The notes beneath the pieces were generated by a model. The model did no database searches and was not told the origin of the DNA. It was given only the letters and a program-made list of their open reading frames with translations. DNA of 24,736 nucleotides from a virus. Lineage: Duplodnaviria > Caudoviricetes. Where the stretch lies: positions 1-24,736 of IMG/VR virus record IMGVR_UViG_3300038675_000170; one strand, 5' to 3'. Both the position numbers and the translations under genes were made by a program. Below are positions 5,467 to 23,942 of this stretch, in pieces; the stretch's first letter is position 1, and the number at the start of each line of letters is the position of its first letter.

Positions 5467-6644
5467 TGTTTGCCTTTCGGGATCGCCCTGGTGAGGAAGT
5501 TCGCATAGTGGTCTATTTCGTCATCGGACAATCCGAGCAGCGAGTCCCGCTTGTAGAAGTTCTTGACGTAGCCCTCTATCTCGTCGCGGGTAAACGCCTG
5601 GGTCCCGAGTTCTACCACCTGGATTATCTTACCCAGATGATTTACGGCCTTGTTGAGCTCCTGCTCTGTCATGAACTTCGTCCCGGTCTTTTGAAACTGC
5701 TTCTGGATATATGCCGTCATCAGCGCCGGCGCGTACCCGAGTTGCTTCAATTGCGCCCCCAGGAGCTTTATGGCTTCGGGGCCTTTTAGCGTGGCCTTTA
5801 GTTCTTCTGGCTCTTTGTCCAGACTCTCGATAAACCCGTCCTCGTGGTCTTCCGGCTGTTCTTCTGCCTCCACGACCGCTTCGATGGGTTCTTCCACGAA
5901 GTGGTCCTCGTGGGTTTCGTCCGGGGCCGGCAGTAGCGCTTTTGGCGACTCGGTTGCTATCGCCTTTGTGGAGTTCTCGCGCATGGCGTTTTGCAGGGTC
6001 CCCTCGATAGACAAGCTTATCACGTAGACCGTCTTTGCGCGGCCTTCGGCCTTGACCGTTCTTGGGCTGAGGATCAGCCGTAGCGGTACGCCCGATATCC
6101 GTTTATATATCGTCTGGACAAGCTTCAGCCCGGCGTTGACGTTTATGATCGAGTGAAACGAGCTTGTGTCGAGTTGCCACACGCCGAGTCCGGGGACCTT
6201 GGGGAGCAGGAACTGAAGCGAAGCCATCGGGCGGCATTTGCGGTTGATCTTTTTGCCGTCTTTTATGAAGTCCTTTTGATGAGGACACCCTTCGCATTTT
6301 ACCTGCTTTTCCCCGGTCTTTTTGCCGTCCTTGTCGAGAACTATCTCGGTAGCGTCCACCCCGTCGCCCTTGCATATCAGCGTGCTAAACGAATACCTTT
6401 TCATGAACTGCGGGAATATTTGGTCCGGATCGTCTATCGGAAAAATGATGTCCAGCGCTTTTGGCTTCTCGCCGTACGCCCGGCGCACTTCTTCCATTAT
6501 CGCTTCGTCGTTGGGATCAACCACGAAGTAGTCTGTCTTTTCAGGATACTCAGCCCCGGACTTTTCGGACTTCTTTTTTATACCAAGCCGGATTTTACCC
6601 ATTCTGGGAAGCCTGGCGATCTCTGATATTCCTTTAATCGGCAT
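5463..6644 (-). CDS. phiC31 Gp3-like (recombination directionality factor-like) replication/recombination protein
   Basis: N-terminus MPIKGI..RLPRMGKIRLG..YP...DYF, CKGDG, C/C/C cluster, LQFLLP..G.GVWQLDTSSFHSI as remembered for the Gp3-like family; acidic linker and helical C-terminus. Confidence 0.75.
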   Translation of the reverse strand: MPIKGISEIARLPRMGKIRLGIKKKSEKSGAEYPEKTDYFVVDPNDEAIMEEVRRAYGEKPKALDIIFPIDDPDQIFPQFMKRYSFSTLICKGDGVDATEIVLDKDGKKTGEKQVKCEGCPHQKDFIKDGKKINRKCRPMASLQFLLPKVPGLGVWQLDTSSFHSIINVNAGLKLVQTIYKRISGVPLRLILSPRTVKAEGRAKTVYVISLSIEGTLQNAMRENSTKAIATESPKALLPAPDETHEDHFVEEPIEAVVEAEEQPEDHEDGFIESLDKEPEELKATLKGPEAIKLLGAQLKQLGYAPALMTAYIQKQFQKTGTKFMTEQELNKAVNHLGKIIQVVELGTQAFTRDEIEGYVKNFYKRDSLLGLSDDEIDHYANFLTRAIPKGKQ

Positions 6645-6649
6645 ATGAA

Positions 6650-6820
6650 TTATCCCCCTATCTCTTTTATTTCGAACTCGTACTCTCGCTCGCCGTCCAG
6701 TGCTCTTTCAAGCTCGGACGCATCAATGGCCACGTCCTCTTTTTCCCGTTGGAGAATGCGGTCATGTACCAAGTCTACGATCTCCGACCCCTTCATCACC
6801 ACCTTTACTGTTCTTTTCAT
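6650..6820 (-). CDS. Hypothetical protein, 56 aa (MKRTVKVVMKGSEIV...)
   Basis: Start moved from 6862 to ATG 6820: GGAG RBS and ATGA overlap with the upstream small ORF. Confidence 0.7.
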   Translation of the reverse strand: MKRTVKVVMKGSEIVDLVHDRILQREKEDVAIDASELERALDGEREYEFEIKEIGG

Positions 6821-6984
6821 ATTACTCGCTCCAGTCTTGCGGGACGTGCGCGCATAAGACAAAATGACAATTTCAGCGAGTCCTGCGTGTCATCGGCTTT
6901 TGGGGATTGGTATTCTACCTTCATGCCTTTTGCTAACGGCCTTGAGAGGACTTCCTTCGCCCTCTCGTACTCCTTTAGTATCAT
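6817..6984 (-). CDS. Hypothetical protein, 55 aa (MILKEYERAKEVLSRPLAKG...), absent from ORF track
   Basis: GGAGG RBS, ATGA overlaps at both ends; fills the gap exactly. Confidence 0.7.
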   Translation of the reverse strand: MILKEYERAKEVLSRPLAKGMKVEYQSPKADDTQDSLKLSFCLMRARPARLERVI

Positions 6985-7169
6985 GAGGTTAAATCCTCCA
7001 CTTTCTTTAAGGCTTCTTCACGGTCTCTGGCTTCGAACGGACCCACAACCTCTTCGCAAAAAGGGCTTTCTTCGGCCTCCGATATATCTAATGCGTCAAA
7101 GTACCTTTTTGCCTGGTATGTTCCACTTGTGTGCTTATATCCCCACCAAAGGTTCCCTTTATCCCTCAC
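6981..7169 (-). CDS. Hypothetical protein, about 62 aa (GTG start; ...WWGYKHTSGTYQAKRYF...)
   Basis: GGGGTGA RBS before GTG 7169; the ORF-track start at 7235 lacks an RBS. Confidence 0.7.
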   Translation of the reverse strand: MRDKGNLWWGYKHTSGTYQAKRYFDALDISEAEESPFCEEVVGPFEARDREEALKKVEDLTS

Positions 7170-7255
7170 TTCATCACCCCGGCCTTTCTCATTTCCCTGA
7201 CGAAATAATGATCCTCTTCGGCAAGTCCGATCCATATGAGTAGTTGCTTAAGCAT
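7166..7255 (-). CDS. Possible 29-aa peptide (MLKQLLIWIGLAEEDHYFVREMRKAGVMK)
   Basis: Overlaps the upstream stop and has a GTGA overlap with the downstream start; weak RBS. Confidence 0.45.
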   Translation of the reverse strand: MLKQLLIWIGLAEEDHYFVREMRKAGVMK

Positions 7256-7538
7256 CGGCTTCCGCGAGCTTTAGCGCGCCTCTTAGCACAAATGCGGACA
7301 TCGACAGCCCTGCTTGTTTTGCGGCTTCTTTGATGCGTATCTTTTGCGATGCTGTGTCTGCAAATATGACTATCTGCCTGGAAGCGCGGGTTTCTTCTAT
7401 CGCTGAGTCCTGCGGGGTTTCGACCACTACCGTCTTTATGGGATTCGATCCTTTTAGCATTTCATTCCTTATCCCGGCCTTTATCCTTTCTCTTTCCCAT
7501 CTTTCCATTCCCCTTTCTTTTATTTGGATCTTGAGCAT
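7248..7538 (-). CDS. Protein with C-terminal ribbon-helix-helix DNA-binding domain
   Basis: RQIVIFADTASQKIRIKEAAKQAGLSMSAFVLRGAL fits the beta-helix-G-helix RHH pattern; TAATG coupling to ssb. Confidence 0.75.
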   Translation of the reverse strand: MLKIQIKERGMERWERERIKAGIRNEMLKGSNPIKTVVVETPQDSAIEETRASRQIVIFADTASQKIRIKEAAKQAGLSMSAFVLRGALKLAEADA

Positions 7539-7882
7539 TAAGCTTCGGCCTCGGATTTGACGGTCGATTTGTAAAACTTCGTATCTAACATCAACATATT
7601 GTCTACGGATATATAGGCCGCCATTTTGTCCTTTCCCTTGCTTTTATAGGTCTTGGGCTGCATTTTGCCTTCTATGGCTACCAGACTCCCTTTTTTGAGG
7701 TATTCTGCAACGATTGTTGCAAGGCCCCGACGTGCGACACAAACAAAAGTTTGCGGGTCGGAGGATTTTGCCGCATTCACCTCAACAACAAACCTCGCCA
7801 CCGGCACTTCTTCCTTGGTGTATCGAAGTTCTGGGTCTTTCGTTAGCCTTCCTGTTGCTATGATCCTGTTTAATCCCGGCAT
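7538..7882 (-). CDS. ssb: Single-stranded DNA-binding protein (OB fold only)
   Basis: LNRIIATGRLTKDPELRYT, AEYLKKGSLVAIEGKMQ motifs. Confidence 0.95.
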   Translation of the reverse strand: MPGLNRIIATGRLTKDPELRYTKEEVPVARFVVEVNAAKSSDPQTFVCVARRGLATIVAEYLKKGSLVAIEGKMQPKTYKSKGKDKMAAYISVDNMLMLDTKFYKSTVKSEAEA

Positions 7883-7906
7883 CTTTTCTCACCCCCTTCG
7901 AGCAGT

Positions 7907-7935
7907 ATCATATACTACCCGTAGGCAAAAGTCAA
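7907..7935 (-). promoter_or_regulatory. sigma70/sigmaA promoter for the ssb operon
   Basis: TTGACT (7935-7930), 17 nt, TATGAT (7912-7907), then AGGGGGTG RBS. Confidence 0.8.
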
Positions 7936-9149
7936 TAAACTTTTTTGCATTTAATCTGGGACGATTTCTTGCCCGTAAAATCCTCCCATCGGTCTATGAT
8001 CACCTGGCAGTAAACGGGGTCAAGCTCCATCATCCGGCACTTGCGGTTCAATTTTTCACAGGCAATTAATGTCGAACCGGAACCTCCAAACAAATCGAGG
8101 ACTATATCATCGGGAGCCGAACTATTCTTAATCCCTTTCTCGCATAACTCGATTGGCTTCATAGTCGGATGAAGCTTGGAGTTCAGCGGACGGTCTATTT
8201 CCCACACCTCGGTTTGTTTGCGGTCGCCCTGGAAGCTGCTTTTTTCAAACCATCCATAAAAACACGGCTCGTACATCCTTTGATAGTTCGCAGGAGTAAG
8301 CACCAGTTGCTGTTTTTTCCATATAATCGTGGCAGACCAATGACATCCCATTTCTACGAGTTGAAGCCGGGAGGACATTCCATCCGGCTCAGGTCCACCC
8401 CAGAGATATATATCCCCTTTATTGTACTTTTTAAATATCTCGAATATACTCGCACAGAATATTTTCCATTCCTCTGGGGACTGTTTGTCGTTCTTTATCT
8501 GCCGGATTTTGTGACGGGGGTTTTTGTTTGCTCCGTAGTCGACGTTGTACGGCGGGTCGGTGAACACCATATTGGACTGCTCCCCTTGCAAAAGCTTCTC
8601 GACATCCTGATATCTCGTGGCATCGCCGCACAGAAGTCTGTGTTCTCCAAGCTTGAACATATCCCCAATTTTTATATTTGTCTTTCTGGGGGCCGGGATG
8701 TCGTCGTCTTTTTCCGACGAAAGCGCCGTGTTGCTTGTTAGTGTGTATAGAAGAGGTGCTTCTTTAATATCCACAGAATAAGTCTTAAGGTCTATGCTTG
8801 ATAGTCCCTTTACTAATTCCAAAAGCGAGTCTTCTACATACACCCCGGCGCGGTCGTTATCGGACAGCGCCACTTTTATCATTTCCTCTTCGTTCTTAAA
8901 TGCTATGGGGATCACCCAGACCTTCGGGGTGCCAAGCTCGCGCAAAGCCTTCAGGCGCATATTGCCACCGGCTACCGATCCTATGGGGGCCACCTTGGGG
9001 TTTGTATTAATTAACATGGGCTTGTATTGGCCAAGGTCCGTGATCTGTTTTTTGAGGTTCTCTATGCCCGCCTTGGTAGGCTTCCGGGGGTTCTTGTCCC
9101 ACTCTTTCAGTTCTTCTATCGGCCACATTTCCGTCGTCAGGTCTTTCAT
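7932..9149 (-). CDS. ParB-like N-terminal domain fused to beta-class N6A/N4C DNA methyltransferase
   Basis: ParB motifs NPRK, GGNMRLKAL, DN; LLCGDAT, catalytic FTDPPYN, HPTMKP, SAM-binding LDLFGGSGST. Confidence 0.92.
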   Translation of the reverse strand: MKDLTTEMWPIEELKEWDKNPRKPTKAGIENLKKQITDLGQYKPMLINTNPKVAPIGSVAGGNMRLKALRELGTPKVWVIPIAFKNEEEMIKVALSDNDRAGVYVEDSLLELVKGLSSIDLKTYSVDIKEAPLLYTLTSNTALSSEKDDDIPAPRKTNIKIGDMFKLGEHRLLCGDATRYQDVEKLLQGEQSNMVFTDPPYNVDYGANKNPRHKIRQIKNDKQSPEEWKIFCASIFEIFKKYNKGDIYLWGGPEPDGMSSRLQLVEMGCHWSATIIWKKQQLVLTPANYQRMYEPCFYGWFEKSSFQGDRKQTEVWEIDRPLNSKLHPTMKPIELCEKGIKNSSAPDDIVLDLFGGSGSTLIACEKLNRKCRMMELDPVYCQVIIDRWEDFTGKKSSQIKCKKVY

Positions 9150-9232
9150 GGTCTTTGTCCTCCGTTCTGTTTTTTACATCAATAACCAGGACAACACCAA
9201 AATATAGTCGCCTTTATGCATTTATTTTTGCC

Positions 9233-9760
9233 TCACTTTATCTCCCCCAGTATCTGCCCGATCATGTTTTTGACTTCGTCCGGTCCGGGTATCCGGTCCG
9301 GGTCCGGTTGAGCATTTTGAGAAAAATCCCTGTCTTTTGAATTGTCTTTTGAAAGAGTGTCTTTTGAGTGTGCTCTTTTAGCCACTGGCAAAGTGTCGGA
9401 AAAGCCACTACCTGTGACCATTTTAGCCACTACCTCTGGTGCCTTTTTAGCCAGTGGTCTTTTAGCCACTACCCACTCTTTAGTGTTTTTGTTTAAGCTA
9501 TAGCAAAAATTGGTCTTTAGTAGTGCTCTTTTAGCCACTAACCCTTTTAGTACCCGGCAGAGACGGCGGTGTTCTATTCCCGTTGCGCTCTCGAACTGTG
9601 ACAGGGGTATTCGGTCTATTTTTTTATTCCAGCCGTATGTTTTTCTTATCACCACAAACAAAACCCTCCACTCGGAGCCGGAAAGCGGGATCTCCGCAAA
9701 GTCCTCAAGAAGTGTATTTGCTATGCGTATATATCCGTCTTCAATCTGCGGGCCTCTCAT
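9233..9760 (-). CDS. lambda O-like replication initiator
   Basis: IEDGYIRIANTLLE...VVIRKTYGWNKKIDRIPLSQF matches the Phage_rep_O N-terminal domain; internal iteron cluster. Confidence 0.88.
   Translation of the reverse strand: MRGPQIEDGYIRIANTLLEDFAEIPLSGSEWRVLFVVIRKTYGWNKKIDRIPLSQFESATGIEHRRLCRVLKGLVAKRALLKTNFCYSLNKNTKEWVVAKRPLAKKAPEVVAKMVTGSGFSDTLPVAKRAHSKDTLSKDNSKDRDFSQNAQPDPDRIPGPDEVKNMIGQILGEIK
9370..9540. repeat. Iteron cluster TTTTAGCCAST, likely replication origin
   Basis: Copies at 9376, 9421, 9445 (variant), 9460 and 9529, partial at 9403; 17-mer GTGCTCTTTTAGCCACT at 9370 and 9523. Confidence 0.85.
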
Positions 9761-9926
9761 TCCCTTGCTCCTTACTTAATACTTGATCCTTAATGTCGTT
9801 ACTGAAAAACCAGAAGTGCTTCATGACCTGATCCTTGATGATTTGAGGCGTGTTGATTTCGTCAAGCGAGTTGAGAAGTTTTGCCAGGTGTCGGTTTGTG
9901 AGTTGCTTTAGTTTCGCTTCTTGCAT
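9741..9926 (-). CDS. Hypothetical protein, 61 aa, first gene of the replication operon
   Basis: TAAGGA RBS directly after a consensus promoter. Confidence 0.75.
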   Translation of the reverse strand: MQEAKLKQLTNRHLAKLLNSLDEINTPQIIKDQVMKHFWFFSNDIKDQVLSKEQGNERPAD

Positions 9927-9951
9927 TTACTTTTTCCTTACCACAATCGCT

Positions 9952-9980
9952 ATCATACGCCCGCGTCAGATTTCTGTCAA
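9952..9980 (-). promoter_or_regulatory. sigma70/sigmaA promoter for the replication operon
   Basis: TTGACA (9980-9975), 17 nt, TATGAT (9957-9952). Confidence 0.88.
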
Positions 9981-10031
9981 GCCCTTTTCCGTACCTTTAG
10001 CGAGAATTTAAAAGTAACGTTTTTTTAGGAG

Positions 10032-10070
10032 CAAAATCAAAGCGCCGGAGTTCATAACGCTCCGGCGCTT
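10032..10070 (-). terminator. Intrinsic terminator closing the late operon
   Basis: 11-bp stem AAGCGCCGGAG/CTCCGGCGCTT, 9-nt loop, followed by TGATTTT on the minus strand. Confidence 0.8.
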
Positions 10071-10160
10071 GACCGGGTCCGGGGCCTGCGGTTTCGGATA
10101 GGGGGGTAATCCATATGCCAACCACCTGAAGCCCCGGACGCGGCGCCCCCCCTATCCTTG
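10071..10160 (-). ncRNA. Candidate structured antisense RNA (3'UTR-derived)
   Basis: Interleaved stems 10147-10157/10096-10106 (11 bp) and 10131-10139/10077-10085 (9 bp, extendable); loop antisense to 6640-6662. Confidence 0.6.
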
Positions 10161-10163
10161 TTT

Positions 10164-10508
10164 TTATGTTCCGAGCTTTTTCTTCACAAGCTCTTTCATC
10201 GAGTTGAATATTGTCTGGACAATCCACCTTCTCACTCCGAGCGGTATCCAACCCGTCCATTTAGTGTTTCCCATCCAATCAGCGGCGGCATTCAACGCTT
10301 CTTCCGGGGTCATGGATATTTTTACCTTCATCTCATTGACCGCGGCAATAGCGTCCCGCGCCTTAGACTCCAATCCAAAGACCGCCACGAGCAAGGCCAG
10401 TATCACGGAAATCGGCCCGCTGTTGTTTCCTATGAACGCCCACACAGCAAGCGCCCATCCCCAAGCTCCACTCGCTATCGACTGTAGAATTTCTATCACT
10501 CCACCCAC
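10164..10508 (-). CDS. Holin-like membrane protein (start possibly GTG 10499)
   Basis: One or two N-terminal hydrophobic segments, basic C-terminus KKKLGT; last gene of the late operon; function inferred. Confidence 0.55.
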   Translation of the reverse strand: MGGVIEILQSIASGAWGWALAVWAFIGNNSGPISVILALLVAVFGLESKARDAIAAVNEMKVKISMTPEEALNAAADWMGNTKWTGWIPLGVRRWIVQTIFNSMKELVKKKLGT

Positions 10509-19360: not shown

Positions 19361-20257
19361 TTACGGCTGTGTCCTTCCCCTGGCGACTCCCGGCTTGCCT
19401 TGTATTCTGGGCCAAACGTAGGCGATATACGTGCGCCCGTAGCCGGTTGTTGCAAGCTCGCCCCATGTCGGGCTTGATGAGAAGTGTTCCGGCACCGAGA
19501 AGCTCACGCTCACGCTGCCTACGCTTTGCGAGCTTGCTATACTCTCGCCCTTGGAGTCGATCCCTGATCCGGCAAGCCTTAAGTCTTTGACCATATAATG
19601 AGCCGTGAGGTACAAATACGCCTCTACCAGCACCTGCCCGTTCTCGAACAGTTCCGGGTTTATAAGCGTCAGCGCCTTCCCGAACCCTTTTTGTATGTCC
19701 ATGTCAAGGACGTAATTGTCCACATCCACGTTCACAGCCTCCCACGTCGGGGGGTCTGTGACCTCTGTGGGGATCACGCCCTGTGACGAGGTTAGGAGCA
19801 TTTTATAAAAGTTAACGTCATTGCCCACTTGGTACGAAACGATGTCGTCCTCGAAGTATTCCTTGGTAAGGCTGAAGGGCTTTAGGTACTTAAAGTCCCT
19901 TGTAAAATAATCCCTGAAATCCGCAGGCTCGATTGAAATAAGGAACGAGTCGTACGAGCTTGACGGTATAGTCCCATACGGGTACGGCCACACCCTCACT
20001 GGCGGTTCGGCCCATCCCGCGGGGTTGTATGTCAGTTGCCTGATTATGAGCGTATAGACGCCAGGCTCGTCCGGTATGAATTCGGCCTGGTAGTTCCCGT
20101 TCGTCAGCTCGTTGATTGTTACGGCTATCTGGTATGGGGTTCCGTCCAGGAACATTTCTATCACAAAATCCTCGGTTGTCAGCCCGAGTACAGGGTTGCC
20201 GTCCTCGTCTGCTACGTGGAGCGCTCCGCTGTAATACTTCTGGTCTATTTTATACAT
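19361..20257 (-). CDS. Head-tail adaptor (DUF4054-like) with extra domains
   Basis: C-terminal YLYLTAHY, SSQSVGSVSVSF, LATTGYGRTY; N-terminal Ig-like extension. Confidence 0.85.
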   Translation of the reverse strand: MYKIDQKYYSGALHVADEDGNPVLGLTTEDFVIEMFLDGTPYQIAVTINELTNGNYQAEFIPDEPGVYTLIIRQLTYNPAGWAEPPVRVWPYPYGTIPSSSYDSFLISIEPADFRDYFTRDFKYLKPFSLTKEYFEDDIVSYQVGNDVNFYKMLLTSSQGVIPTEVTDPPTWEAVNVDVDNYVLDMDIQKGFGKALTLINPELFENGQVLVEAYLYLTAHYMVKDLRLAGSGIDSKGESIASSQSVGSVSVSFSVPEHFSSSPTWGELATTGYGRTYIAYVWPRIQGKPGVARGRTQP

Positions 20258-21326: not shown

Positions 21327-23942
21327 TTATATCAAAGCCAATAAAGCCTGTAATTGAGTTTCGTTCAGGCTTGTTGAACCCAGAGTGAGTCCTGCGGCAT
21401 ATACCGTCCCGCTGTAATGCCCGTCTTTCCAGCGCAGGTCTTCCGTTCCATTATCATATGCTCCGTCCTCTTGCCCGCACCAATCCCAATTCACCCACGC
21501 ATACTCGTCCGTTAAATTCATGCCGATAGAGCCGCTTGATGAAAAATCGGACTTTGCAAATATGATTTCAGGCTCGTCAAAATCTCCCTGTGCGAATATT
21601 CCCAAACTGTCGTAAACACCAAGAGCATAAGGGAAGGGAACGACTTCTGGTAAAGAACTTAGGGCCTCGCTTTGAAGAATTGGAAAAGTTATCTCAAGGT
21701 CAGGGACTAACGCTGAAAGGTCAACAGTCAGCTCTTTACTTTCAATGGCGGTGTTAGGGAACGAGAACCTGAAGAAATCGTCAAGCTCGTAATACTCGTT
21801 GCCGTAGTCATAGCCAAACACCTTCGGGTTCTCTTTGTCAGAGTCGTAGAATGTAAGGCTTGCATTTGTCTCTCCGTCCTTTGCTATTACGTTCGCAGAC
21901 TTCTGTAGGTAGACTCCTTCTTCTACTGAGCCTTCGTCGTCTCCATCGTCGAACAATCTCGTCATCCCGCTCATCACGGGTATTCTTGAATGAGAGTATT
22001 GCCCGTTCCTTACCTGCTTGTATCCATAGGTCAATTCCTCTCCCCAGAACCCAACGTGCAGGTCGTGGAAGAACCCTGTCGGGCCGTTCACTCCCGGCTG
22101 TTCTATCACGCCCAGGTATGGAAGCTCACGGCTGAAATCCGCAAATCCGAGATATAGATATTTGCCGTGGACTGCAAGCGTAAGCGGCATAGGAGCGTAA
22201 AACTTCTTTGCTACTATATATGGGTTTGCGGGGTCACGCACGTCAATGACATAAAGGTTCGGCTCGCTTGACGACCAATTCACCAGGTAGCAATATCCGT
22301 TGACGTATTTTACATAGCTTGACGGAGATACCAGGTCGGACAAAAGCGACGACACTATTGTCGGGGCCGTCTTGTTGCTCACGTCAACGATATAAAATTT
22401 AGGGTTGTCGCTTTCCATAAATGACAGTCCAGAGGCAATATAGACATAATCGCCCCAGACGTTCAGCGTCCATATACCGTCAGGGATATTGAGAGCGGAA
22501 CCGCCTACTACGGACATATCGGACGGGTCGGTAGCGTCTATTATCCTGAACATATCCGTCCCAAGCGTGGAGTTCCTGCCGCCTACATACACATATCCGT
22601 CCTGGACTTTGCACGTCCAACACACAAATGCACCGTCGCTTATTGGAACAATACTGTCGAGTATTGCGGGATTATCAACATCTGAAACATCTACGGAATA
22701 TAGCGTCTGCTGTCCTGTGACATAGACAACGCCATTCTCGTAATCAAGCGTAGCACCGCCACCACTATTTTCAAACCCCGTAAGTGCAGAGCCGCCCTTA
22801 ACGACAGGGTTTGTCGGGTCATGCACATCGACTATGCGGAACACATCCCCTCCCGTTGCTTCGAACGCGATATACAAATACCCGCCCTGATACCGTATGC
22901 CCTTAATGGCGTGTGCGGGAAGGTTTGTTATGGTTGTCGGGCTTACCTTAACAGGATTTGCGGGGTCTGCAAGAGAATATATCTGCAACGGACAGACTTC
23001 TTCTTCGTAGTATGTGCCAAGATACAGATACTTTCCGTCGGTGTCTATTGACCGTGCGGTGTTCTCAAGCCCTACCGCCGTTGTGATATCCTTCATCGTT
23101 GGGGCCAACCATGCGTCAACGGCTTCTGATGATGATATTCTTTCGTAAGCACTTATATTTTGACCGCACCAGAAATCACTCTCTGTAAGCTCAAGTGTGT
23201 TATTGTCAAAATCTGGGTAGAGTTCTATCCCGCCAGTCATTGCTCCTTCTGTGAATTGCAGGAATATTAAGCTATGGTTTGCGTCGTTGTCCAGATCGAA
23301 CGACGATATGCCAAACCTCATGCTCCACAATGCCGCATCAAGTCCGCTTTGCGAGGTCGTTGCCTTTATATGCGGAAACGTCACTTCTCCTAATCCAACC
23401 GCTGTCAAATCTACCGTTTCTTGTTTCATGCGGATATTCAATCCCGTATGTCCGAACATCATTCTTATCTCTGAATTTTCTTCGTCAATTTCATACATAG
23501 ATATAAAGAAGGGGTATTCAATATCATCAGCGTCAGGAGCTTCCCCCATAATAAGCCCAGAGTTAAGATTGAACGTGTAATAATAAAATTCCGTGTCTTC
23601 GTCTGCGGTGCTGATAATGGGCTGTGTAAATTGATGAAAAACATTCGCATCTTCTTCGTCTTGTCCGAATGCCGCACAAATGCATTTGACTTCCTCCGGC
23701 CCCATGTTGGCGATATCTGCCAAGAAGAACCCAGACGCAATGGCAACAGGCATATGTTCTATTTCTTCGAGTTCTTCATTCCATGTATAGCCAGTTAAAT
23801 ACGCAATTTCCTCAAATTCTTCTACGGCTATGTAGTGCGGGGTTGCGGACGTGGCATCGCCGAGCTTTGTGTCGAAGCCGAGTTCTCCAAAGCCAGCAAC
23901 GTACAGGTTGCGGTCTATATATTTATCGCCTTTAGTTCGCAA
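21327..23942 (-). CDS. LVIVD-repeat beta-propeller protein, putative receptor-binding/fibre protein
   Basis: About seven repeats such as GGYLYIA..FRIVDVHDPTNP, FYIVDVSNKTAP and LYVIDVRDPANP; fibre-like C-terminus YDNGTEDLRWKDGHY; TTG start. Confidence 0.82.
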   Translation of the reverse strand: MRTKGDKYIDRNLYVAGFGELGFDTKLGDATSATPHYIAVEEFEEIAYLTGYTWNEELEEIEHMPVAIASGFFLADIANMGPEEVKCICAAFGQDEEDANVFHQFTQPIISTADEDTEFYYYTFNLNSGLIMGEAPDADDIEYPFFISMYEIDEENSEIRMMFGHTGLNIRMKQETVDLTAVGLGEVTFPHIKATTSQSGLDAALWSMRFGISSFDLDNDANHSLIFLQFTEGAMTGGIELYPDFDNNTLELTESDFWCGQNISAYERISSSEAVDAWLAPTMKDITTAVGLENTARSIDTDGKYLYLGTYYEEEVCPLQIYSLADPANPVKVSPTTITNLPAHAIKGIRYQGGYLYIAFEATGGDVFRIVDVHDPTNPVVKGGSALTGFENSGGGATLDYENGVVYVTGQQTLYSVDVSDVDNPAILDSIVPISDGAFVCWTCKVQDGYVYVGGRNSTLGTDMFRIIDATDPSDMSVVGGSALNIPDGIWTLNVWGDYVYIASGLSFMESDNPKFYIVDVSNKTAPTIVSSLLSDLVSPSSYVKYVNGYCYLVNWSSSEPNLYVIDVRDPANPYIVAKKFYAPMPLTLAVHGKYLYLGFADFSRELPYLGVIEQPGVNGPTGFFHDLHVGFWGEELTYGYKQVRNGQYSHSRIPVMSGMTRLFDDGDDEGSVEEGVYLQKSANVIAKDGETNASLTFYDSDKENPKVFGYDYGNEYYELDDFFRFSFPNTAIESKELTVDLSALVPDLEITFPILQSEALSSLPEVVPFPYALGVYDSLGIFAQGDFDEPEIIFAKSDFSSSGSIGMNLTDEYAWVNWDWCGQEDGAYDNGTEDLRWKDGHYSGTVYAAGLTLGSTSLNETQLQALLALI

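Follow-up and report, generated by a model that had tools for sequence, protein, structure and literature searches.

In synthetic toehold switches, a sequestered pairing region lies beside a free single-stranded toehold, at which strand exchange starts. In Staphylococcus aureus, a C-rich motif in the 3'UTR of the icaR mRNA reportedly pairs with the Shine-Dalgarno sequence (SD) in the 5'UTR and blocks translation. For the small RNA RoxS of Bacillus subtilis, RNase Y is described as trimming the 5' end by about 20 nt, after which RoxS binds a second target, sucCD, more efficiently (PMC4409812). The CI RNA of satellite phage P4 (seqB) is described as pairing with seqA, which lies upstream of it, and with seqC, which lies downstream; it terminates transcription prematurely and is excised from a leader that is not translated (PMC4825925; PMC3632133). 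The names under which Rfam holds the P4 RNAs are given as C4 and IsrK (PMC3632133). Here, we analysed a stretch of DNA of 24,736 bases, hereafter called the window, which is a single IMG/VR virus record with an estimated completeness of 54%. We describe an RNA element at the end of the late operon of this phage and compare it with the systems above.

All the plausible genes in the list of open reading frames of the window are on the minus strand, and so are the features described below unless the plus strand is named. Read 5' to 3', the late genes form a tail and baseplate module, which includes the baseplate hub (12298-11195) and a 226-aa spike-like protein (11198-10518). The module ends in a 114-aa predicted membrane protein (10508-10164), the last late gene, with its TAA stop codon at 10166-10164. 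An intergenic region of 237 nt separates this gene from the early genes. The early module starts with a 61-aa ORF and includes an O-like replication initiator (9760-9233), a ParB-methyltransferase fusion, an SSB and several small ORFs between the O-like and Gp3-like genes, the gene of a 393-aa Gp3-like protein (6644-5463; PF18897, E 1.9e-51) and, after it, SbcD/SbcC-like genes. An early promoter-like site, TTGACA-17-TATGAT (9980-9952), matches at 11 of 12 positions and lies ahead of the replication genes.

The element follows the late stop codon, in the first half of this intergenic stretch, and the near-consensus early promoter comes after its terminator. Since the element lies between the late stop codon and an intrinsic terminator, it is an untranslated tail of the late operon. 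The early promoter is itself flanked by the direct repeats GGTAAGGAAAA and GGTACGGAAAA (minus strand, window 9932-9942 and 9985-9995; repeat finder, D2), one located just upstream of the -35 and the other over the SD of the first early ORF; these could be operator or iteron half-sites. Elsewhere in the window, a near-identical translation-initiation stretch, GGAAAGGAGGACAAGCAATGAA, is found at 438-461 and 713-736 (23 of 24 letters) in two consecutive small genes, whose minus-strand starts are at 446 and 721. It is the only direct 24-mer repeat that an all-against-all census finds in the window.

The element extends from the late stop to a run of U's, over positions 10163-10033 of the minus strand, and can be described as composed of a 5' arm, a GC-rich hairpin with a large loop, and a terminator. 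The 5' arm, GGATAGGGGGG (10157-10147), which the original prediction regarded as a built-in mimic of the target, starts 6 nt after the stop codon. It takes in most of a run of seven G (10152-10146). The GC-rich hairpin is formed by stem B, with its 5' strand at 10144-10129 and its 3' strand at 10087-10072. This stem was detected as repeat I1 (10073-10092 / 10124-10143, 20 nt, 80% complementary); it has a perfect 9-bp core (10139-10131 / 10085-10077) and, with a single bulge, reaches 15 pairs, some of which are G-U. Within the loop, a segment of 24 nt, the putative antisense guide, can be divided into two halves. The 'toehold' half, GGCATATGGATTA (10119-10107), is antisense to the start-codon side of the putative target, 6652-6640, and the anti-SD half, CCCCCCTATCC (10106-10096), is the partner both of the 5' arm and of the SD side of the target, 6663-6653. 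The intrinsic terminator (10070-10033; repeat I2) consists of a perfect 11-bp stem (10070-10060 / 10050-10040) with a 9-nt loop, followed by TTTGATTTT; its U-tract is on the transcribed strand, and it carries a compensatory change in one of the strain contigs, X8. It was missed by a simple terminator scanner because of the 9-nt loop. Folding energy does not tell the two strands apart, since the plus strand reaches the same value as the minus strand (-60.8 kcal/mol); we infer that the RNA is the minus strand from the gene orientation and the U-tract.

The repeat finder shows that GGATAGGGGGG is the perfect reverse complement of CCCCCCTATCC (repeat I3; 11 nt, 100%), the two arms being 40 nt apart. 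That this 5' arm pairs perfectly with the anti-SD half of the loop, as originally predicted, is therefore confirmed in 11 of 11 positions, with every coordinate correct. The prediction had further placed this pairing across the 9-bp stem in pseudoknot order, and the four strands do interleave. Along the minus strand they follow one another as A5' (10157-10147), B5' (10139-10131), A3' (10106-10096) and B3' (10085-10077), which is the strand order of an H-type pseudoknot (S1a-S2a-S1b-S2b). Both helices are perfect, and the linkers are of 2-7, 22-24 and 8-10 nt. The 9-mer GATAGGGGG, common to the arm and the target ribosome-binding site (RBS), has three exact copies, in the arm, in the complement of the loop and in the target.

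The putative target (6663-6640, minus strand) comprises the end codons and the stop of a 56-aa ORF, an SD (GGGGG) and the ATG of the Gp3-like gene. The 24 nt of the loop (10119-10096) are antisense to this segment in 21 of 24 positions, with one of the three non-matches being a G-U, and the claim that the guide is antisense to an RBS is thus upheld. The arrangement resembles that of P4 immunity, in which a small phage antisense RNA is complementary to two sites of the phage's own transcription unit and the downstream site lies ahead of replication genes. In the window, the 5' arm corresponds to the upstream site (11/11) and the RBS at 6663-6640 to the downstream site (21/24). Unlike in P4, the effect predicted here concerns an RBS, the element stands at the end of a late operon that is coding, and its upstream site is near enough for pairing in cis. 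The likeness to RoxS and RsaE, sRNAs of Firmicutes, is that of a C-rich unpaired motif directed against a G-rich SD; in the predicted fold of the element, the C-run is exposed, and it is complementary to the SD. By analogy, RoxS may also serve as a precedent for activation by the loss of a 5' segment (PMC4409812). It differs from the element in being a stand-alone chromosomal sRNA with several C-rich regions, and the part of its description cited here mentions no pseudoknot (PMC4409812).

By covariance model, the element is not a member of the P4 CI / c4 or RoxS/RsaE families. At gathering scores, Rfam gave no matches over the whole window. With E values up to 10, the region 9850-10350 gave three weak matches to other families, two of which cover the terminator hairpin only, and neither the P4 CI / P1 c4-type nor the RsaE/RoxS-like models matched in these searches. 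A search for tRNA and tmRNA genes found none. The remaining two systems differ from the element in the placing of their partners. The icaR pairing takes place within one mRNA, whereas the target here is in another operon, about 3.5 kb downstream. Toehold switches are engineered and their masked partner is the mRNA, whereas the predicted masked partner here is the antisense guide.

The complementarity of arm and loop, which the original prediction took to be real, is indeed non-random by the repeat finder and by shuffling; it is significant given its place and only mildly unusual window-wide. Perfect inverted repeats of at least 11 bp with a spacer of at most 80 nt occur twice in the 24.7-kb window, and these two are the terminator and the arm-loop pair. 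With the threshold lowered to 9 bp, inverted repeats are found in seven distinct places in the window, three of which are inside the element. Because about 0.5 perfect 11-bp inverted repeats (spacer of at most 80 nt) are expected by chance per 24.7 kb, on an estimate that takes uniform composition, the arm-loop pair is not significant window-wide on its own. The duplex of the 20-nt leader with the 45-nt loop has an energy of -25.6 kcal/mol. Shuffling both segments reached this energy in 6 of 3000 cases when dinucleotides were kept and in 1 of 3000 with mononucleotide shuffles, and a perfect run of at least 11 appeared in 4 of 3000 dinucleotide shuffles. The arm 11-mer, with at most one mismatch, is found in the window at the two arms only; at least two such matches were present in 12 of 100 shuffles of the window.

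In nested folding, the optimum (-60.8 kcal/mol) combines stem B with a weak hairpin at the apex, where one half of the guide is partly paired with the other. A nested fold in which the arm helix is enforced has an energy of -59.5 kcal/mol, 1.3 kcal/mol worse than the optimum. The nested ensemble gives the arm helix a probability of 0.025 and stem B one of 0.96-0.98; with stem B blocked, the 11-bp arm helix becomes the best remaining structure (-22.9 kcal/mol). A crude estimate in the style of Dirks and Pierce places the pseudoknot between -36.8 kcal/mol, for the 9-bp stem, and -47.5 kcal/mol, for the 15-bp stem with a linker of only 2 nt. Nested folding of these 93 nt gives -40.0 kcal/mol, which is inside this range. 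By these crude energies, the pseudoknot is plausible and may be the most stable state, with the nested fold close to it, and the linker of 2-7 nt between the arm and stem B may put it under strain. The run of six C (10106-10101) in the apical region, with unpaired probabilities of 0.97, 0.93, 0.85, 0.49, 0.14 and 0.54, is complementary to the G-rich SD at 6658-6654.

The match of the guide with its target was compared with other matches in the window. An all-against-all census of inverted 24-mer pairs with at least 21 matches finds two in the window, so the guide-target match is not unique by itself. The second pair (19942-19965 / 21779-21802; 21 of 24), which is within coding sequence and was used as a yardstick, is probably due to chance. 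Among 100 shuffles, none had a second match of the 24-nt guide. In a scan with RNAduplex, the target came first of 2449 minus-strand windows (-44.3, the next being -35.3; mean -17.7, sd 4.7), a ranking without discriminating power, as one of the control windows on the plus strand outscores the target (-46.9, through a long interrupted duplex). The weight of the guide match rests on the locations of its two partners, a loop in a conserved non-coding tail and a correctly oriented RBS.

Strain variation was followed in contigs from public runs. Contigs of four runs (X2, X3, X7 and X8) were compared over 6400-10400, and of four (X3, X8, X11 and X12) over 9990-10210, X11 giving none. There is no substitution between 10065 and 10145 in X3, X8 and X12, the last of which reaches 10132 only; arm and loop lie in a non-coding element kept by these related strains. 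In X8, the spacer 9927-10031 (105 nt) carries at least 12 substitutions, at 9955-9989 and 10025-10031. The segment 10032-10157 (126 nt) has two (Fisher p = 0.002), and the hairpin and arm together (87 nt) have none (p = 0.0006). The terminator of X8 differs from that of the window by two plus-strand substitutions, C>T at position 10046 and G>A at position 10064, the partners of one terminator base pair. The double change is therefore compensatory, and it is a signature of selection on RNA structure. The element is thus real, conserved and under strong constraint in an uncultured phage. In the neighbouring early promoter, the spacer and the -10 (9955-9989) have eight substitutions in X2, X7 and X8, the RNA element being unchanged.

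The arm is kept in all three variant runs that reach it (X3, X7 and X8). In each of them the G-run has five letters instead of seven, with two letters missing at 10146, and ten perfect pairs remain. The arm-loop pairs show neither a substitution nor a compensatory change in the strains, and only the length of the G-run varies (7 or 5). Because the paired letters are invariant, the strain comparison is neutral on the arm pairing; stem B has no substitution either, and its invariance is likewise neutral on that helix. The X3 contig is unlike the window upstream of 10159/10160, for about 1.4 kb. As this divergence lies directly upstream of AAGGATAG, the shared block begins at the arm, and the sequences point to a mosaic junction at 10159-10160, with X3 carrying this RNA element behind another late-gene end.

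The 2-nt indel in the arm means that no reading frame is kept across it. An 87-aa ORF (10260-9997) in the -1 frame of the 114-aa gene was rejected, since it would cross the terminator and the strains carry the 2-nt indel inside it. The motif AAG AAA AAG at 10181-10189, near the end of the 114-aa gene and upstream of the open -1 frame, has the look of a frameshift site; this reading was rejected on the same two grounds, the terminator inside the -1 frame and the strain indel.

The original prediction had also proposed that GGGGCGCCG (10149-10141) could pair with the 3' arm of the terminator and possibly control read-through. The complementarity is present: GGGGCGCCG can form six Watson-Crick and three G-U pairs with CGGCGCTTT (10047-10039). 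It is built from a low-complexity GC motif that is found also in the terminator's own 5' arm. A functional pairing, and with it read-through control, is disfavoured because the change at 10046 in X8 is compensated at 10064 and not at 10142, which is unchanged in X8 while the terminator pair changed. The shorter G-run of the strains costs this pairing two G-U pairs.

On the side of the target, X3, X7 and X8 differ from the window at 6645, 6648 and 6653. Against the unchanged loop, 6653 and 6648 gain Watson-Crick pairs in place of a mismatch and a G-U, and 6645 becomes a mismatch. The chance that at least two of three random changes in the target gain pairing is about 0.005. The target changes fit selection for pairing and neutral decay from a once-perfect match equally well. 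In the same three runs, about 300 nt of the early region (6861-7166), comprising most of an 84-aa ORF (7235-6981), are replaced by 114-119 other letters, a strain-level module swap.

Homologues of the element and of its neighbours were searched for in several collections. A blastn search against phage records gave no match. In viral contigs, neither the 114-aa neighbour nor the 393-aa target protein has relatives, and the O-like protein was found at one locus. Relatives of the 226-aa protein are present at 32 viral, 55 metagenome and 11 genome loci, the best with 53-58% identity. One of these relatives (L036) ends before the region of the element, and a blastn search of the element against 33 other loci (L002-L034 only) gave just chance matches of 11-15 nt. 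Exact scans of viral contigs found neither the 24-nt guide nor the stem with a free loop. Overall, the scanned phage, viral-contig, metagenome and genome collections hold no alignable homologue of the element. A screen of all loci for the run of six C gave five contexts, of which that in L003 is the only one at a late/early junction.

The record behind L003, G001 (40.5 kb, 91% complete), is the closest relative, with 53% identity in the 226-aa protein. It has the same late-to-early junction with a shorter tail, which consists of a small hairpin with a 9-nt loop, UCCCCCCUU, followed by a terminator whose loop resembles that of the window. A 19-mer across the UCCCCCCUU loop is complementary in 16 of 19 positions to a site about 3.1 kb downstream; the two lie at L003:5420-5438 and L102:1501-1519. 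At this downstream site, a 68-aa ORF has its stop and a 149-aa early gene, located just after the SSB, has its SD. Any such sense-strand match was seen in 10 of 300 block shuffles, and the G001 match is supportive and not decisive because the 19-mer was chosen after the sequence had been viewed. The 149-aa gene is not homologous to the Gp3-like gene of the window, and G001 is without the long hairpin, the 11-nt arm and a homologue of the 393-aa target protein. Taken together, the two sequences suggest a theme of the lineage, in which the late operon ends with a C-rich anti-SD loop directed against an early RBS. They also suggest that the branch of the window itself added the long hairpin and the arm.

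Our preferred reading, which we hold tentatively and at somewhat less than even confidence, is that 10163-10033 of the minus strand is a conserved non-coding RNA, composed of a GC-rich hairpin and a terminator, in which the arm and the loop form a pseudoknot or a competing helix that masks an antisense guide. The original prediction was that of an auto-inhibited RNA. Its arm-loop complementarity, its conservation and its guide match are observed, and the masking itself is plausible. The alternative that survives best, a possible one to which we give less credence, is that the arm has no functional pairing with the loop. The anti-RBS hairpin and the terminator would then be functional, and the G-rich arm would be kept for another reason, for example as an SD-like stretch by the stop codon or as part of a signal for processing or stability of the transcript; complementarity to the loop would be inherent to an SD-like sequence facing an anti-SD sequence. 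As arm and target SD have GATAGGGGG in common, the complementarity of the arm to an anti-SD loop is automatic. The arm helix probability of 0.025 in nested folding, the tolerance seen in the shortening of the G-run from 7 to 5 and the simple hairpin that suffices in G001 point the same way. However, the 11 perfect pairs, which include the non-SD pairing GGATA/TATCC, exceed what a G/C-rich composition gives (6 of 3000 shuffles), and the conserved block of X3 starts exactly at the arm.

It is unlikely that the element is a transcript-end structure only, that is, a stabilising hairpin and a terminator of the late operon, with the RBS match and the arm pairing arising by coincidence in GC-rich sequence of low complexity. 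In favour of this reading, a compensatory change is proven for the terminator alone, another inverted 21/24 pair in the window (19942/21779) resembles chance, and the plus-strand control of the RNAduplex scan scores as high as the target. However, a stabiliser needs a stem and not an invariant loop of 45 nt, and this loop has no substitution in X3, X8 and X12. Two of the three strain changes in the target move toward the complement of the loop, and G001 has an analogous loop-RBS match.

A role of the interleaved repeats as double-stranded DNA, for instance as protein-binding sites, an origin near the replication genes or an attachment site, is very unlikely. The element does stand at the junction of the late and early modules, shortly before the O-like replication gene, it is invariant in the strains, and its plus strand folds as well as its minus strand. 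Against this role, the repeat finder detects no iterons inside the element, and the compensatory change in the terminator and the orientation of the U-tract point to RNA. No integrase of either kind is present in the window or in G001, which is 91% complete. A reading as attP is unlikely for this reason, the absence of a tyrosine or serine integrase domain from the window being, at 54% completeness, not conclusive. Finally, we give almost no credence to the hairpin as the coding sequence of a small peptide, an Arg-rich ORF of 20 codons ending in the terminator loop, for which an SD-like AGGTGG 7 nt ahead of an ATG (10114-10112) is present and invariance in the strains would be compatible with coding, since the antisense match to the target's palindromic CATATG explains the ATG most simply, the 15-bp GC stem and the terminator enclose both SD and ORF, and the ORF is without a counterpart in G001.

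Under the preferred reading, a masked antisense guide in the tail of the late message, the element would act as RNA, be it the 3' tail of that message or a piece released from it by cleavage. By binding the early Gp3-like gene at its RBS, the loop would lower translation of this gene late in infection. The 5' arm and the target would be competitors for the C-run, and strand exchange would begin at the free 13-nt half of the loop. As an alternative, the arm may be released by ribosomes stopping 6 nt upstream of it, or by a nuclease. With no integrase found, a role other than excision control is suggested for the Gp3-like protein here; some directionality factors are described as possible moonlighting proteins (PMC11795197).

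A bolder form of the masked-guide reading, which we regard as speculative and rather doubtful, would have the late message of a lytic phage end in a natural 'toehold switch', an antisense RNA that is pseudoknotted and masks itself, its guide being kept closed by a built-in copy of the target SD. The mask would open when the free half of the loop docks on the RBS of the early Gp3-like recombination/replication gene, or when a terminating ribosome opens it, and that gene would not be shut off until late transcription had begun.

Whether or not the mask exists, the strains reveal strong constraint on a small non-coding element of an uncultured phage. If the arm truly masks the guide, the element would be a natural self-inhibited phage riboregulator, which would couple late transcription or translation to the shut-off of an early gene. 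Such a masked guide would follow the logic of engineered toehold switches and of the seqA/seqB/seqC triad of P4.
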